Assembly (NCBI GenBank): GCA_038213315.1
Contig: JBBQTJ010000008.1
Span: forward strand, 1 to 26,611
DNA: 26,611 nt
Origin: Planctomycetota bacterium
Lineage (GTDB): Bacteria; Planctomycetota; UBA11346
Direction of reading: 5' to 3'
Each line of letters begins with the position of its first letter. The first letter of the stretch is position 1. A program made the translations under genes and the position numbers. Below are positions 15,500-24,042 of this stretch, piece after piece. The notes below the pieces were generated by a model, which was given only the letters and a program-made list of their open reading frames with translations, did not search any database and had not been told where the DNA came from.

Positions 15500-15620
15500 C
15501 GGACGATGTTGGCTCAGTCCCCTGAGCAACCTATTTGTGACAAAGGAGAGCCTGAGAGGCGTGGCCATGCCGCGCGACCCCAACACCTGATCCGGATCAT
15601 GCCGGCGGAGGGATGGTGCA
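15500..15620 (+). ncRNA. TPP (THI-box) riboswitch upstream of the transporter gene
   Basis: Contains CCUGAGAGG (CUGAGA box), then GACCCC, then ACCUGAUCCGGAUCAUGCCGGCGGAGGGA. This matches the conserved P4/P5 pyrophosphate-sensing core (consensus ACCUGAUCUGGAUAAUGCCAGCGUAGGGA). An extra 7-bp hairpin GCGUGGC-CAU-GCCGCGC sits between the CUGAGA and ACCC boxes. The 5' P2 strand is atypical. Context: it is divergent from thiD. Confidence 0.65.
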
Positions 15621-15624
15621 GCGC

Positions 15625-15660
15625 GTCCTCCGGCCGCGTCCTTCGCCATTTTTGGAGGAC
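15625..15660 (+). promoter_or_regulatory. SD-sequestering helix of the riboswitch expression platform
   Basis: GUCCUCC (15625-15631) is perfectly complementary to the GGAGGAC SD (15654-15660), which lies 4 nt upstream of ATG 15664. Confidence 0.5.
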
Positions 15661-15663
15661 TCC

Positions 15664-17106
15664 ATGGACGCACCCCTTGCCCTGCCCGCTATGATCATCG
15701 CCATCGTCGTGTGCGGTGGCTTCGCTCTGATGGGTGCGCTCAATGCGCGCCGTCAGAGCACTGATGCGGCCGCCTTCAACCAGGCCCGTGGCAGCACCGG
15801 AGCGCTGTGGTCGGCGCTCAGCCTGGTCGCGCTGATGGCCGGCACCTGGGTGCTGTTCAGCCCGGGCGAGATGACCAGTTACACCGGGGTGGCGACTTTG
15901 GTTGGGTATGCCCTCGGCATGGCAGCACCCTTGGTGATCCTGGCCTGGCTGGGTCCGGCCCTGGTTCGCCGCTATCCCGAGGCGGCTGGACCTGGGATGA
16001 TGGCGCGCGCCCGTTGGGGTGCGCCCGCGCAGCTGCTCGTCTCGGTCCTGACTGTGGCCTATATGGGCAGCTATGTGGTCGCTGAACTGACCGCGATCAG
16101 CGGTGCTTTCGGCATCGTCGCTGGTGTGCCGGCCTGGGCCACCGCGCTGCTGGTCGCCACCGCGACCCTGTCGTACGCCGCCTGGGGCGGGTTGCGCGTA
16201 ACCATCTTCACCGACGGTGTGCAGGCCTGGTTCATCCTGCCGCTACTGATCGCCGCCTTCATCGGGACCATCGGAGCTTTCGGCGGCTGGGAGGCAGCCC
16301 AACAGCCCCTGGCCGCGCGCGCCGACCTGATGACCCTGGCCAGCCGGCCCGGTATTGAGGCCGGCATGATGCTGATGCTGGGCATCATCGCCGCCAATCT
16401 GCTGGACCAAAGCGTCTGGCAGCGCGTCATCGCCTGCCGCGACGACGCCACCCGCCGCCGCGCCTTCTTGTTGGCCGCGCTCGGCATCATCCCGGTCATT
16501 CTGATGGCTGGGTGGTTCGGCTTATGGTACGCGGCGCGCAATGCCGACCTGGCCAATGCTTCGTCGGCCCTGTTCCAGGTCATCGCCCAGGCCACGCCAG
16601 CCTGGGTGGCCCTCGCCGTCCTCGCCCTCGCCCTGATCCTGGTGATGAGCACCCTCGGCTCGCTCGCTAACGGCCTCGCTGCCCTGGTCGCCGCCGATGT
16701 GGCCAGCTTCCGACCAGGCCTCTCGCCACGCCAGCGCTTGGCCATCGGCCGCGGGGTGACCATCGCTGCCGCCCTGATCGCCGTGCCCATCGCGGCGGCG
16801 CAGCCCAGTGTAACCTATGTCTTCCTGGCCGCGGATCTGCTCTGCGCCACGGCGGTGGTGCCGCTGTTTGCTGGGCTTCTTGGTGTGCGCCTGTCACAGT
16901 TTGGCTTATTTTCTGCCGTCGCCCTGGGCATGGCGTGCGCCATTCCGGCCTTCCCACGTCCCGATTTCGTCACCCCCTGGGTTGAGCTGCGTCCGCTGCT
17001 CCATCTGCCTGCCGACGTCAACGCCATGCTGGTCAGTTTCGCCCTGGCGGTGGTGGTGCCGCTGCTGGTGACCGTGGTGTGGCCCAAGGCGGCACCAGTT
17101 CGATAG
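15664..17106 (+). CDS. sodium:solute symporter family (SSF) transporter, ThiV-like (thiamine or HMP precursor uptake predicted from the riboswitch)
   Basis: About 12 predicted TM helices. SSF signature GGLRVTIFTDGVQ (compare GGxxAVxxTDxxQ). Start chosen at ATG 15664 with a GGAGGA SD. The track ATG at 15613 lies inside the aptamer. Confidence 0.75.
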   Translation: MDAPLALPAMIIAIVVCGGFALMGALNARRQSTDAAAFNQARGSTGALWSALSLVALMAGTWVLFSPGEMTSYTGVATLVGYALGMAAPLVILAWLGPALVRRYPEAAGPGMMARARWGAPAQLLVSVLTVAYMGSYVVAELTAISGAFGIVAGVPAWATALLVATATLSYAAWGGLRVTIFTDGVQAWFILPLLIAAFIGTIGAFGGWEAAQQPLAARADLMTLASRPGIEAGMMLMLGIIAANLLDQSVWQRVIACRDDATRRRAFLLAALGIIPVILMAGWFGLWYAARNADLANASSALFQVIAQATPAWVALAVLALALILVMSTLGSLANGLAALVAADVASFRPGLSPRQRLAIGRGVTIAAALIAVPIAAAQPSVTYVFLAADLLCATAVVPLFAGLLGVRLSQFGLFSAVALGMACAIPAFPRPDFVTPWVELRPLLHLPADVNAMLVSFALAVVVPLLVTVVWPKAAPVR

Positions 17107-22585: not shown

Positions 22586-23600
22586 GGTGTGGTCGTAGCA
22601 AAACCCCCATTCCCTGATAAATGCCGCATTCTTCAGCGCAACGGCATGTCCAATATGCTGTAGTATTTCGGCGAATCAGCGGCAAGTCTGTTCATCCCCT
22701 GGGAATCTTCGCAGGCGCATCGACGGCCCTCTGGCCCAGCAGCGCATCGACCATTCCCCGTTGCTGTCGATGTATCTGAACCCGCGCAGTCGCGATGAGA
22801 CGGTGCTGGGCATGGATGGCCCGCACCCGCACGCCCAGCCTATCATCCTCACGCCGCCGCTGGCTAGCCGGGGCTGAAATCCAACGCAGGTAGCCGCTCT
22901 TTGACACGAAGAGCACTCGACACATCACCCAACGCCGTTTCCTTTAGGCGCTCGTGTGGGCCAACGGCCCGATTCAAGTCAGCCCAGGGCAACACCCAGG
23001 GAAATCATTCGGCTCTCCTGGAGAGCCCTGAAGGGGCGACTCAATCCGGCGATTCAGCCGCCCCTTCAGAGCCCTACAGTCCTGGTCCTATTGTCCCAGG
23101 GCGTTGCCCTAGGCTATCATGGGTCGGGCCGTTGGCCCTCGCGAAAAAGCATAAAGAAACGGCGTTAACACATCACCCACAGTCTGAATATGTCGGGGTG
23201 ACCCGCAATGAAGCCAGACCTCACCGTGACTCCCTAAGGAAGAATTCCGTCTTTTTTTTAGATTTCACGCTCCTCCAAGAAATGAGCGTGCTCTCGCCGA
23301 GGACGAGCCACCGCAGCCTCCAGGCCGGACTGGACGCCGTGGCCAGGAAAGGCCTGGGGACGGGCAGCACGAAGTTCGCGCCTCCACGTATGGATTGCCG
23401 CCGCAGAGTCCCGGATATTGACCCCTGCCTAGCGGGCACCTTTTCCATCGGCTAGGCGCATGGCGCTCTCCTTGAACTCATTGGTGTAGACCTTCCGGTG
23501 GCGGGACTGGATGGGTTCGGGGTGGTCTTTGATGCTCATGGGCATGGATCTTATCAGCTCGTGCGAGCTTATTTGGTGGTCCATGAAAGCAGGGCAGGCT
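22586..23600 (-). mobile_element. degenerate IS3-family insertion-sequence remnant: orfA pseudogene, frameshift window, and only the first ~75 codons of orfB. The part 22586-22812 is direct-repeat copy B.
   Basis: orfA (23556..23258): MPMSIKDHPEPIQSRHRKVYTNEFKESAMRLADGKGAR*AGVNIRDSAAAIHTWRRELRAARPQAFPGHGVQSGLEAAVARPRREHAHFLEEREI*. Compare IS3 OrfA: F(S)xEFKxxAVxL...GVNANLLYRWRRE...AFPGKG...RLRREN..LxEERDILKK. Slippery-like AAAAAAAAG at 23251-23259. orfB start ...FRLWVMC/RVLFVSKSGYLRW... (compare MCRVLGVSRSGYYAW). The DDE core is absent. Confidence 0.7.
22932..23167. mobile_element. 236-bp MITE-like palindromic element inserted at the orfA/orfB junction of the IS3 remnant, flanked by a 12-bp direct duplication
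   Basis: Flanking direct repeat ACACATCACCCA at 22920-22931 and 23168-23179. Removing the insert restores ...FRLWVMCRVLFVSKSGY... in frame. Terminal inverted repeats ACGCCGTTTCCTTTAGGCGC...GGGCCAACGGCCCGA (left) and its imperfect reverse complement (right, about 45 bp). Internal hairpin CTGAAGGGGCG-N19-CGCCCCTTCAG. Confidence 0.6.
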
Positions 23601-23676
23601 CACAGCTAGGCGCACTGCAAAATGCAGTGATAATAAACGATACCGCAGGGCTCAACGCCACTAAGGTACTCCGCCC

Positions 23677-24042
23677 ATGACGCCTTCCTCCTTTCATTCT
23701 TCTGGCATCAACGGCCTGGACGAGGTGCTGGGCGGCACCACGCACCTGCTGCTTGACGAGGTCGAAGGGGTGAATGCGTCGCGCGTGGTGCTCGATTCGC
23801 TGGCTGAACTGTGCATCCTCTCACAGGATTCGCTGCGCTGCCGCCGCCAGATCCTGGCGCTCAAGCAGTTCTTCCACAAACACCGCTGCAGCGCGCTGCT
23901 GCACGACGACCGTTCTGGAACCGATATGTGGCAGGTCAGCGAAGACGATTCGCTACGCGCCGCGAATCCCGCCTTCCGCCACCGCTCGTGCGGCACCGTC
24001 GCGCTCTCGCCTGCGCGCAGATCACCCATCCTTGTTTCCTGA
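23677..24042 (+). pseudogene. KaiC/RecA-superfamily ATPase remnant (internally deleted, lacks Walker A)
   Basis: N-terminus SGINGLDEVLGG (compare KaiC/RadA TGIxGLDxxLGGG), but the P-loop is missing. It jumps to VVLDSLAEL...RRQILALKQFFHKHRCSALL (compare KaiC VVIDSLS...RxxIxRLxxxLKxxGxTxLL). 121-aa ORF only. Confidence 0.4.

Follow-up and report, generated by a model that had tools for sequence, protein, structure and literature searches.

The window analysed here is a complete contig of 26,611 nucleotides from a Planctomycetota bacterium (GTDB lineage UBA11346; contig JBBQTJ010000008.1). Its minus strand carries the remnant of an IS3-family element, which is split into two parts by a palindromic insert (Table 1). 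The 12-mer ACACATCACCCA borders this insert at 22920-22931 and at 23168-23179, leaving 236 bp (22932-23167) between the two copies. These are the sole matches to the 12-mer across the window even at one mismatch, and two or more copies occur in 0 of 100 shuffled sequences. The identity of the remnant as IS3 comes from an NCBIfam profile and from tblastn. Its putative left end TGAGCCTGCCCTG... is the reverse complement of 23590-23602; we take TGAGCC... to be an IS3 end from the general IS3-family ends TG...CA. The best matches of the remnant are in Deinococcus. A symporter encoded in the window matches haloarchaeal plasmids.

Table 1. Features of the insert and of the surrounding IS3 remnant (positions in the window)
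Feature	Position	Strand	Description
IS3 remnant, distal part	22690..22929 (low boundary approximate)	-	OrfB' from ...WVMCRVLFVSKSGY... on; degenerate, truncated after about 75-100 residues
Left target-site duplication copy ACACATCACC	22920..22929	.	Exact repeat reaches 22931 with CA included
Left terminal inverted repeat CAACGCCGTTTCCTTTAGGCGC	22930..22951	+	From five-copy alignment; family consensus YAACGCCGTTTCCTTTGCGCGC
REPIN-like palindromic core, about 195 bp	22952..23143	.	H2-H1-H3, centre, H3'-H1'-H2'; homologous to palindromes and Y1 arms of other phyla
Left arm	22957..23001	-	Degenerate match to RF01687 (Acido-Lenti-1), 17.3 bits
H2 GGGCCAACGGCCC	22958..22970		Left arm
H1 CCCAGGGCAACACCCAGGG	22983..23001		Left arm
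Central hairpin	23026..23071	.	H3 CCCTGAAGGGGCG 23026-23038; centre ACTCAATCCGGCGATTCAG 23039-23057; H3' CGCCCCTTCAGAG 23059-23071
Right arm	23095..23139	+	RF01687 31.8 bits (gathering score 37), E 1.4e-5; H1' 23095-23113, H2' 23126-23138
Right terminal inverted repeat AAAAAGCATAAAGAAACGGCGTTA	23144..23167	+	Outside-in reading TAACGCCGTTTCTTTATGCTTTTT
Right target-site duplication copy ACACATCACC	23168..23177	.	CA directly after
IS3 remnant, proximal part	23178..23602	-	Left end, orfA' with in-frame stops, A-rich frameshift region, orfB' start (...FIAGHPDIFRL)

Restoration of the IS3 frame and length of the target duplication

A preliminary description of this DNA had proposed that removal of the insert together with one repeat copy restores the orfA-orfB junction of the IS3 element. 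This removal yields ...FRLWVMCRVLFVSKSGY... on the minus strand, and the restored frame aligns without a gap to the OrfB of a Deinococcus proteolyticus IS3 element with a score of 136. Keeping both repeat copies forces an insertion of four residues against the same OrfB and lowers the score to 122, while keeping neither forces a deletion of four residues with a score of 108. Only the one-copy version is gapless, and the NCBIfam profile transpos_IS3 crosses the restored junction with an E value of 1.6e-12. For the restored frames, nothing was returned from Pfam or from the homologue search.

An exact-pattern scan of metagenomes gave 18 loci, which collapse to the window site, a further four sites that are complete and two that are truncated. 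Comparison with the four other insertion sites places the family-wide ends at YAACG...CGTTR and gives a duplication of 10 bp. The repeat of 12 bp in the window consists of these 10 bp and an ambiguous CA, since the left end of the element itself begins with a conserved CA. The 12-bp duplication of the preliminary description is therefore a real repeat that flanks the insert, but its length in the family is 10 bp at every complete site. With the CA counted, the element comprises 238 bp and has a G+C content of 60%. At the five complete sites the abutting 10-mers match at 10, 9, 8, 10 and 8 of 10 positions. Matches of at least 8 of 10 have a background frequency of 8e-4 per comparison, so that the five sites would arise jointly by chance with a probability of about 4e-16. 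A target duplication of fixed length is seen at independent sites (n = 5). No empty allele was recovered for any site, and a search through the neighbouring Band 7 gene returned a sole other contig that stops short of the IS3 remnant.

These repeats also bear on the mobility of the segment. It could be a resident structured RNA gene, namely a pair of Acido-Lenti-1 sRNAs, or a local palindrome with a coincidental repeat at its flanks; the arms do contain an Rfam motif described as a candidate sRNA with covariation (PMC2864571). We regard such an immobile segment as very improbable and in practice refuted, as the IS3 orfB frame is restored exactly by removing the element with one repeat, the 10-bp repeats abut five independent copies, and the same element lies within different flanking sequences. 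The proposed insertion of one element into another is borne out by the repair of orfB and by the duplications at all five complete copies. Its target was the N-terminal coding region of orfB in an IS3-family element, which today is a truncated pseudogene. Insertion into an already dead IS3 element has no obvious consequence for the host.

Anatomy of the element and its family

The 236 bp between the repeats align over their full length with their own reverse complement (72% over 243 columns, E 2e-27). Folded as single-stranded DNA with DNA parameters, the sequence reaches -77.9 kcal/mol compared to -39.1 +/- 3.6 kcal/mol for shuffled sequences, corresponding to a z score of -10.8. The terminal inverted repeats match over 14 nt at 93% and extend imperfectly beyond, and the internal hairpin has a perfect 11-bp stem, CTGAAGGGGCG/CGCCCCTTCAG. 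One reading frame is open across the element, and a protein search with its translation gave no candidate homologue. Self-complementarity, imperfect terminal inverted repeats, a hairpin with an 11-bp stem and the lack of coding capacity had all been proposed from the sequence of the window, and each of them agrees with these results.

The element has two layers. The outer layer is the pair of 22-24-bp terminal inverted repeats (YAACGCCGTTTCC...) that belongs to the family of this organism only. In the fetched loci the 12-mer AACGCCGTTTCC is restricted to element ends, barring chance matches with one mismatch. A second AATGCCGTTTCC at locus L120 was considered as an element end; it falls within coding sequence, has the same orientation and was rejected as a chance match. 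The inner layer is built from G+C-rich hairpins, which are in each arm H2 (GGGCC-AAC-GGCCC), H1 (CCCAGGGC-AAC-GCCCTGGG) and H3 (GCCCTGAAGGGGC).

Besides the window copy, the family comprises at least four complete copies (239, 199, 177 and 122 bp) and two truncated copies, located in differing flanking sequences. These copies (B-G) are metagenome contigs whose assignment to the same genome is based on shared samples and similar G+C only; the metagenomes also carry the window organism. This organism is present in JGI samples 3300027878 and 3300009032, in ENA ERZ27247434, and in Logan SRR19962013 and SRR15443080. All five complete copies (238, 239, 199, 177 and 122 bp) keep the ends YAACGCCGTTTCC...GGAAACGGCGTTR despite internal losses. 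The size variants are explained by internal deletion, to which the long palindrome is prone and which yields copies of 122-239 bp that retain both ends. In the plasmid collection no match was found for the 236-bp element, and in viral contigs none for the end pattern. The left 76 bp matched plasmids only by the H1 hairpin, on a Thiodictyon plasmid.

The copies are small (122-239 bp, compared to less than about 600 bp for MITEs), non-coding and bounded by conserved terminal inverted repeats. The element is genuinely MITE-like, and it is a REPIN-type palindrome capped by repeats. Of the undescribed MITE family that had been suggested, what stands is a family of several copies that share conserved ends and vary in size, but its core is known and its arms carry RF01687. 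Likewise, the element is a non-autonomous palindrome as proposed, but it is not merely an IS with its middle deleted, as the core is REPIN-like.

Y1 transposase cassettes and the Acido-Lenti-1 motif

Positions 20-213 of the element share 73% identity with 195-bp palindromes of a Planctomycetota MAG. On the same Planctomycetota contig, two palindrome halves bracket a gene for a Y1_Tnp protein of 150 aa (PF01797, E 4e-25). The order H2-H1-H3, gene, H3'-H1'-H2' recurs in all four further distinct homologue contexts (six loci, L122-L127), and a simpler form of this plan is present at L050. Arms flank a Y1 gene in every other lineage examined (L054, L050, L122-L127). IS200-like Y1 transposases ('RayT') with such arms are found in Planctomycetota, Verrucomicrobia, Nitrospiraceae and Methylomirabilota. 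The protein, named RayT by JGI, is 70-87% identical across phyla with one listing per cluster, and it scores 66.8 bits as IS200 in NCBIfam versus 24.4 bits as canonical RAYT. In the cassettes that bear the gene, the counterpart of the element centre is formed by the Y1-gene junctions ...AATCC/ATG and TGGGATTAG/.... Judged by this homology, the core of about 195 bp is not IS-derived; it is a gene-less version of the arm pair of a Y1 cassette. Its two inverted three-hairpin arms are joined at the position where the transposase gene would be expected. A resemblance of positions 5-40 to L050 was dismissed as chance, as beyond the hairpin it rests on TAGGCGC, which is derived in the window copy only.

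The outer 22-24-bp inverted repeats and the short duplications are found only in the family of the window organism. No Y1 cassette examined has the outer repeats, and five palindromes from Planctomycetota and Methylomirabilota have neither these repeats nor an abutting short duplication. In other phyla, palindromes and Y1 cassettes lie between long direct repeats of host sequence of about 25-107 bp. A Y1 gene of the window organism itself was not found among the sequences searched.

With the arm pair of a Y1 cassette unmistakable in its core, the element could be a true REPIN spread by a RayT-type Y1 enzyme of the organism. In that case the enzyme would recognize or cleave within the outer 22-24 bp, and the 10-bp repeats would result from non-canonical integration. 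Related recognition sites could be marked by AACG, which is present at the extreme end (YAACGCC) and again in the H2 (CCAACGGCC) and H1 (GCAACGCCC) loops of either arm, and the host-sequence repeats around palindromes and cassettes elsewhere also point in this direction. Y1 transposition of the IS200/IS605 type produces no duplication and inserts beside a fixed target of 4-5 nt. No such target abuts the left end across the five sites, where the left flanks are ATCACC, CAGCCC, CTGGGG, ATGACC and CGGAGA, and all five carry 10-bp duplications and outer repeats of the IS type. The outer repeats are lacking from the Y1 cassettes examined, and both features from the five palindromes elsewhere. The phrase 'target site duplication' is moreover absent from the text of the REPIN paper searched. 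We therefore consider mobilization by a Y1 enzyme of this kind quite unlikely.

The arms also connect the element to a known RNA motif. Rfam lists RF01687 (Acido-Lenti-1) as a candidate sRNA that stands alone, has no known function and is supported by covariation (Weinberg et al. 2010, PMC2864571). It has 46 nt and two hairpins with the conserved linker GCUA...CG, and it corresponds to H1' and H2', the outer two hairpins of each arm. Both arms of the window copy score below the gathering score, while sister copies reach 36.9, 36.6 and 34.9 bits and homologous arms in other phyla 37.5-39.6 bits. The gathering score is reached at loci of Planctomycetota, Terriglobia, Thermoanaerobaculia, Verrucomicrobia and Methylomirabilota. 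Complete genomes with RF01687 hits include those of Koribacter versatilis, Lentisphaera araneosa and Rhodopirellula baltica. Of the hairpin cells in 38 arms, 98.6% are paired, and 8 of 13 pairs have changed on both sides, which is equalled by 0 of 500 shuffles; compensatory changes thus preserve the hairpins.

In contrast to its stand-alone entry in Rfam, the motif here invariably belongs to a larger DNA palindrome or to the arms of a transposase cassette, and it occurs on both strands of one element. In all cases examined it lies within the inverted arms of a Y1 cassette or in a gene-less palindromic derivative, so that its covariation may stem from DNA hairpins recognized by an HUH enzyme and not from an RNA function. 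Acido-Lenti-1 would then serve a very widespread and slowly evolving IS200-like Y1 transposase, located inside restriction-modification loci, as its DNA hairpin module (REP) and would not be an sRNA. The motif, in Rfam without a function since 2010, thereby gains a concrete identity that is open to testing.

Mode of movement and comparison with known systems

The insertion with its duplications, the conserved ends of the family, and the homology of the core to Y1 arms with its conserved hairpins are established. The outer repeats together with the 10-bp duplications argue for integration by a staggered cut of the DDE type, with the enzyme supplied in trans. We propose that the element, 238 bp in two layers and non-autonomous, is probably moved by a DDE enzyme of the IS4 family. 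This kind of enzyme and this family are the most likely from the duplication length and the resemblance to IS4 ends. The transposase would cut the target with a stagger of 10 bp, and repair would produce the 10-bp duplication.

Among many IS families, IS4 is the one we take as comparison, and the end similarity is modest. The family ends YAACG.......TTT or TTA fit the consensus of the IS4 subgroup at positions 14-16, while position 4 is C versus T. The end TAACGCCGTTTCTTTATGC of the element is identical to the left end of E. coli IS4, TAATGCCGATCAGTTAAGG, at 12 of 19 positions (counted by eye), and E. coli IS4 makes a 12-bp duplication. Shared with the IS4 family are a duplication of about one helical turn, the ends -AA.G....... 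and T-rich positions 14-16. Unlike IS4-family elements, the element has no transposase gene, and its interior is unrelated to any of them. For the IS4 subgroup, ends of the form -AATR--------WTW with direct repeats of 10-13 bp are described, and 8-10 bp for IS4Sa (De Palmenaer et al. 2008, PMC2266710).

Searches of the window, of 131 loci and of the plasmid and viral collections gave no transposase gene bounded by matching terminal repeats, so that a cognate IS of this MITE-like element is putative, and tblastn with E. coli InsG detected no IS4-like (DDE/YREK) gene in the fetched loci. Two candidates were rejected. An ISNCY fragment beside a truncated copy (L112) is a transposase C-terminus present in one copy, with no matching right end within the contig. 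An IS4-family element beside the Deinococcus IS3 homologue has the unrelated ends CTCAGTACCTGACAGGTTG.

In the reading with a DDE enzyme, the element would be a chimera in which a REPIN has become enclosed by DDE-transposon ends, and two unrelated transposase classes could act on it. Alternatively, the Y1 clade itself might integrate DNA through a staggered target cut. To our knowledge such integration is not known for HUH Y1 enzymes, and we consider it decidedly improbable.

Among described families, Chunjie of Geobacter uraniireducens Rf4 comes close in size, repeat lengths and fold stability, a comparison made by description only. According to PMC3184786 and PMC10969869, which summarize Chen et al. 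2008, Chunjie elements measure 178-235 bp, with terminal repeats of 21 bp, direct repeats of 9 bp and very stable folds between -98 and -130 kcal/mol. The element described here measures 122-239 bp in its family, with terminal repeats of 22-24 bp, duplications of 10 bp and a fold of -78 kcal/mol (DNA parameters). Strong self-folding and many truncated copies are common to both as far as these descriptions go, and the G. uraniireducens genome has one Acido-Lenti-1 seed sequence. Membership in Chunjie or a close relationship to it would mean that the class is not new. However, Chunjie is A+T-rich with 9-bp repeats whereas the element has 60% G+C and 10-bp repeats, and the lone Geobacter seed with its flanks shows no YAACGCCGTTTCC end, which makes this assignment unlikely in our view. 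From PATE-like IS200/IS605 miniatures the element differs by its duplications and its variable left flanks.

REPIN-type palindromes are thought to depend on a single-copy RayT and to be free of duplications. The combination of such a palindrome with IS-type repeats and regular 10-bp duplications suggests that a cut-and-paste system can take up palindromes of this type or be combined with them. Modelling of their spread and copy number should change accordingly. The elements also matter for annotation: in genomes of high G+C content they give rise to long open frames and fragment assemblies, and recognising them prevents spurious gene and sRNA calls.

Among the closest known systems are REPIN/RAYT systems (REPtrons), in which a REP-associated tyrosine transposase encoded in single copy spreads REP doublets (Bertels & Rainey 2011, PMC3116915; Bertels et al. 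2017, PMC5581495; 'TIRtrons', Di Nocera et al. 2013, PMC3733652). As in these systems, short G+C-rich hairpin units are arranged in the core as an inverted doublet that forms one long hairpin, and the same units flank, in inverted orientation, a small Y1 (HUH) gene in other lineages. The Y1 protein of these cassettes scores as IS200 in NCBIfam, unlike a canonical RAYT, and the hairpins have neither GTAG nor CGTC, the tags by which the described REP superfamilies are recognized. In contrast to REPIN/RAYT systems, the element described here has additional terminal inverted repeats of 22-24 bp and target duplications of 10 bp.

The insert and its target in the IS3 remnant

The 236-bp insert lies between two exact copies of the 12-mer ACACATCACCCA. 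With one mismatch allowed, the 26.6-kb window contains no third match, and two matches occurred in 0 of 100 shuffles. The G+C content of the insert is 60% compared to 66% for the window. It aligns end to end with its own reverse complement (72% over 243 columns, E 2e-27), and its fold as single-stranded DNA reaches -77.9 kcal/mol versus -39.1 ± 3.6 for shuffles (z = -10.8). The repeat-flanked, largely self-complementary insert of the preliminary description is borne out by these data. Comparing the insert with the whole window, we could not find a second copy.

On the minus strand, the flanks of the insert represent a decayed IS3-family element, undetected by Pfam and by homologue search. NCBIfam transpos_IS3 spans the restored orfB' junction (E 1.6e-12), and tblastn with the remnant retrieves IS3 transposases, the best from Deinococcus plasmids with 37-42% identity. 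With one repeat kept, the junction aligns without gaps to D. proteolyticus OrfB (FIAAHLRDFRLDVMCRVLQV / FIAGHPDIFRLWVMCRVLFV, score 136), while keeping both copies causes a 4-residue insertion (score 122) and keeping none a 4-residue deletion (score 108). Because the one-copy version alone is gapless, the flanking repeat is a true target duplication, and the insertion of one element into another, with the IS3 orf junction restored upon removal of the insert and one repeat, is confirmed.

The insertion neighbourhood is a junk interval with a Band 7 gene on one side and a CHASE3-GAF histidine kinase on the other, and no effect on the host is evident. The same interval contains a KaiC-like 121-aa ORF, probably a gene fragment (PF06745 E 2e-5, below the cut-off, partial profile). 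Elsewhere in the window, the TPP riboswitch model RF00059 matches over its full length but below threshold (34.8 bits, gathering score 54.3), and this match ends just within the start predicted for a sodium:solute symporter ORF.

Features of the window and insertion sites of the element family
Feature	Position or loci	Strand	Description
12-mer copies	22920-22931; 23168-23179
Element arms	22930-23001; 23095-23167
IS3 remnant end TGAGCCTGCCC...	23602	minus
IS3 remnant orfA'		minus	with stop codons
IS3 remnant frameshift region		minus	A-rich
IS3 remnant orfB'		minus	first 75-100 codons
KaiC-like ORF	23677-24042	plus
RF00059 match	15534-15630	plus
Symporter ORF	15613-17106
Site A (window's own)	L109, L113		99.6% identical
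Site B	L103/L104		239 bp, 90.7% identical
Site C	L105/L107		199 bp
Site D	L108		177 bp
Site E	L115/L118		122 bp
Sites F and G			one truncated left end each

Element family and length of the duplication

The window is an entire NCBI contig, and several assemblies from JGI, ENA and Logan contain its source organism as well. Scanning metagenome contigs for the exact pattern ACGCCGTTTC, a 15-20-nt gap and GGCCAACGGCCC gave 18 loci, which reduce to seven sites (A-G) after removal of duplicates and one chance coding-region match. Sites B-G thus add four complete and two truncated sites to that of the window. In the alignment, both the left end YAACGCCGTTTCCTTTGCGCGCTCGTGAGGGCCAACGGCCCG and the right end GGGCCGTTGGCCCTCGCGAAAAAGCATAAGGAAACGGCGTTR are retained in every complete copy, and internal losses differ from copy to copy.

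At the five complete sites, the abutting 10-mers agree in 10, 9, 8, 10 and 8 of 10 positions. The background rate of at least 8/10 matches is 8e-4, giving a joint chance of ~4e-16 over the sites. Position 11 mismatches in all three older copies, which favours reading the 12 bp of the window as a 10-bp duplication plus CA, the first dinucleotide of the left end in six of seven sites. The target duplication proposed before therefore stands, but at 10 rather than 12 bp. The two youngest insertions (perfect duplications; window and L108) have CATCACC in the duplicated decamer, in opposite orientations to the element. Base +12, two positions beyond the right-hand duplication, is A in each of the five sites. 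These features could reflect a target preference, on a sample too small to decide.

The two alleles of site F (L106/L114 and L110/L111/L116/L120) have truncated left ends with 55 or 107 nt retained. The truncated ends of sites F and G adjoin unrelated, lower-G+C DNA, and at site G (L112) the end lies between another IS3-remnant copy and an ISNCY transposase C-terminal fragment (NF033593, E 1e-16). From these nested insertions and deletions it follows that the organism has mobile-element junkyards.

Acido-Lenti-1 arms and Y1 transposase cassettes

Scanned against a genome collection, a 19-base pattern that is conserved in each arm matched a Planctomycetota MAG contig (L024, L054) with many 195-bp palindromes, 73% identical to element positions 20-213. 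They cover all of the element except the outer ~20 bp per side. Each element arm carries Rfam family RF01687, Acido-Lenti-1 (46 nt, two hairpins), which corresponds to hairpins H1' and H2' of the arm. The window arms score 31.8 and 17.3 bits and those of sister copies 36.9, 36.6 and 34.9 bits, below the gathering score of 37, while copies in other phyla exceed it (38.3-39.6 bits). Pairing in the two hairpins is 98.6% over 38 arms, with 8 of 13 pairs changed on both sides, a pairing score reached by 0 of 500 shuffles. Weinberg et al. (2010, PMC2864571) introduced Acido-Lenti-1 as a candidate sRNA without known function from Acidobacteria and Lentisphaerae, which in some cases lies close to group II introns. 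Of the proposed undescribed MITE family, the multi-copy part is supported, but the core with RF01687 on each arm is not undescribed.

In L054, a gene for a 150-aa Y1_Tnp / IS200-like transposase (PF01797 E 3.8e-25; NCBIfam IS200 66.8 bits) lies between the left and right half of one palindrome. The element centre CAATCC-GGCG-ATTCAG corresponds to both gene junctions, ...AATCC/ATG and TGGGATTAG/..., so that the palindromes are the cassette minus its gene. For the Y1 protein, homologues at E <= 1e-10 number at least 7,991. Identities among the best 120 listed range from 69 to 100%; these proteins are assigned to Planctomycetota, Methylomirabilota, Nitrospiraceae and Verrucomicrobia and carry the JGI name 'REP element-mobilizing transposase RayT'. 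The order H2-H1-H3, gene, H3'-H1'-H2' recurs in 4/4 further distinct contexts fetched (six loci, L122-L127) and, in simpler form, in a Pirellulaceae homologue (L050). A palindrome on a gammaproteobacterial plasmid (Candidatus Thiodictyon syntrophicum pTs485, NZ_CP020372.1:392840-395918) fits the H2-H1-H3/H3'-H1'-H2' plan as well, and the repeat family therefore extends to Chromatiaceae. The H1 hairpin occurs at 17 places in that record.

AACG is found three times per arm in all family copies, once at the terminus (YAACGCC) and once in each of the loops of H2 (CCAACGGCC) and H1 (GCAACGCCC). Each terminus also has the 9-bp palindrome AACGCCGTT. All fetched Y1 contexts (L122-L127, L054/L024, L050) lie inside a restriction-modification or defence cluster: hsdM (N6_Mtase/Eco57I) - Y1 - hsdS (Methylase_S), Y1 - ResIII helicase, or Y1 beside DUF1016. 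Identity of the gene between phyla is 70-87%, and its position seems conserved and may be domesticated. In these other phyla, long direct repeats of host coding sequence flank palindromes and cassettes (L024 2159-3433 and 245-1040, L124-L127): a unit of 302 bp, composed of the 195-bp palindrome and 107 bp of an hsdS 5' end, is repeated 4.2 times, a ~55-bp segment of a gene's 3' end is present in three copies, and the motif ...IEEIL.PKP.ARPRIYAY... stands on either side of a cassette. Unequal recombination, long duplications or gene-end restoration are possible origins.

Outer layer, candidate enzyme and known elements

Neither the outer 22-24-bp inverted repeats nor short duplications are found in any Y1 cassette examined or in five palindromes checked from other phyla. 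Judged from these comparisons, they form a second layer specific to the family of the window organism. As is well established, Y1 (IS200/IS605) transposition inserts beside a fixed target of 4-5 nt without a duplication. The REPIN paper searched nowhere uses the phrase 'target site duplication'. Left flanks vary among the sites of the element and the 10-bp duplication is regular, from which we infer a DDE enzyme with a 10-bp target stagger. Among IS families, a duplication of about one helical turn is characteristic of IS4. Repeats are 10-13 bp long in the IS4 subgroup, whose ends are -AATR--------WTW, and 8-10 bp long in IS4Sa, where the ends are CA------T (PMC2266710). E. coli IS4 makes a 12-bp duplication, and its end TAATGCCGATCAGTTAAGG is identical to the element's right end TAACGCCGTTTCTTTATGC in 12 of 19 positions, which is suggestive of an IS4-family enzyme but not proof. 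The proposed search for a cognate transposase retrieved none with the element's ends in the window, the fetched loci, or the plasmid and viral collections.

A DDE transposase, most likely of the IS4 family and encoded elsewhere in the genome, would bind the 22-24-bp ends, excise the element and integrate it at target cuts staggered by 10 bp. The REPIN-like interior would be a passenger captured between two ends, or a REPIN that landed in an older miniature element. The long palindrome would be prone to internal deletions, accounting for the size series and for the different truncation points of the two site F alleles. Apart from the inferred enzyme, this scheme is read directly from the sequences.

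The element behaves like a MITE and has the generic features of one except a known parent IS. Its core resembles REPIN/RAYT, yet that class has no terminal repeats and no duplication, while the element has both, and its hairpins are without the GTAG or CGTC tags of the REP classes (PMC3733652). The finding of the preliminary description is real and most of its interpretation is right; the element is a REPIN-type palindrome that is capped by repeats and produces target duplications. The genome of Geobacter uraniireducens contains an Acido-Lenti-1 seed. If Chunjie, a MITE of strain Rf4 of this species set beside the element by description only, is homologous, the first description of the class is from 2008 and the novelty is confined to the link to Y1 cassettes and RF01687. 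Of most value are the two-layer architecture and the connection of Acido-Lenti-1 with the arms of Y1 transposase cassettes.
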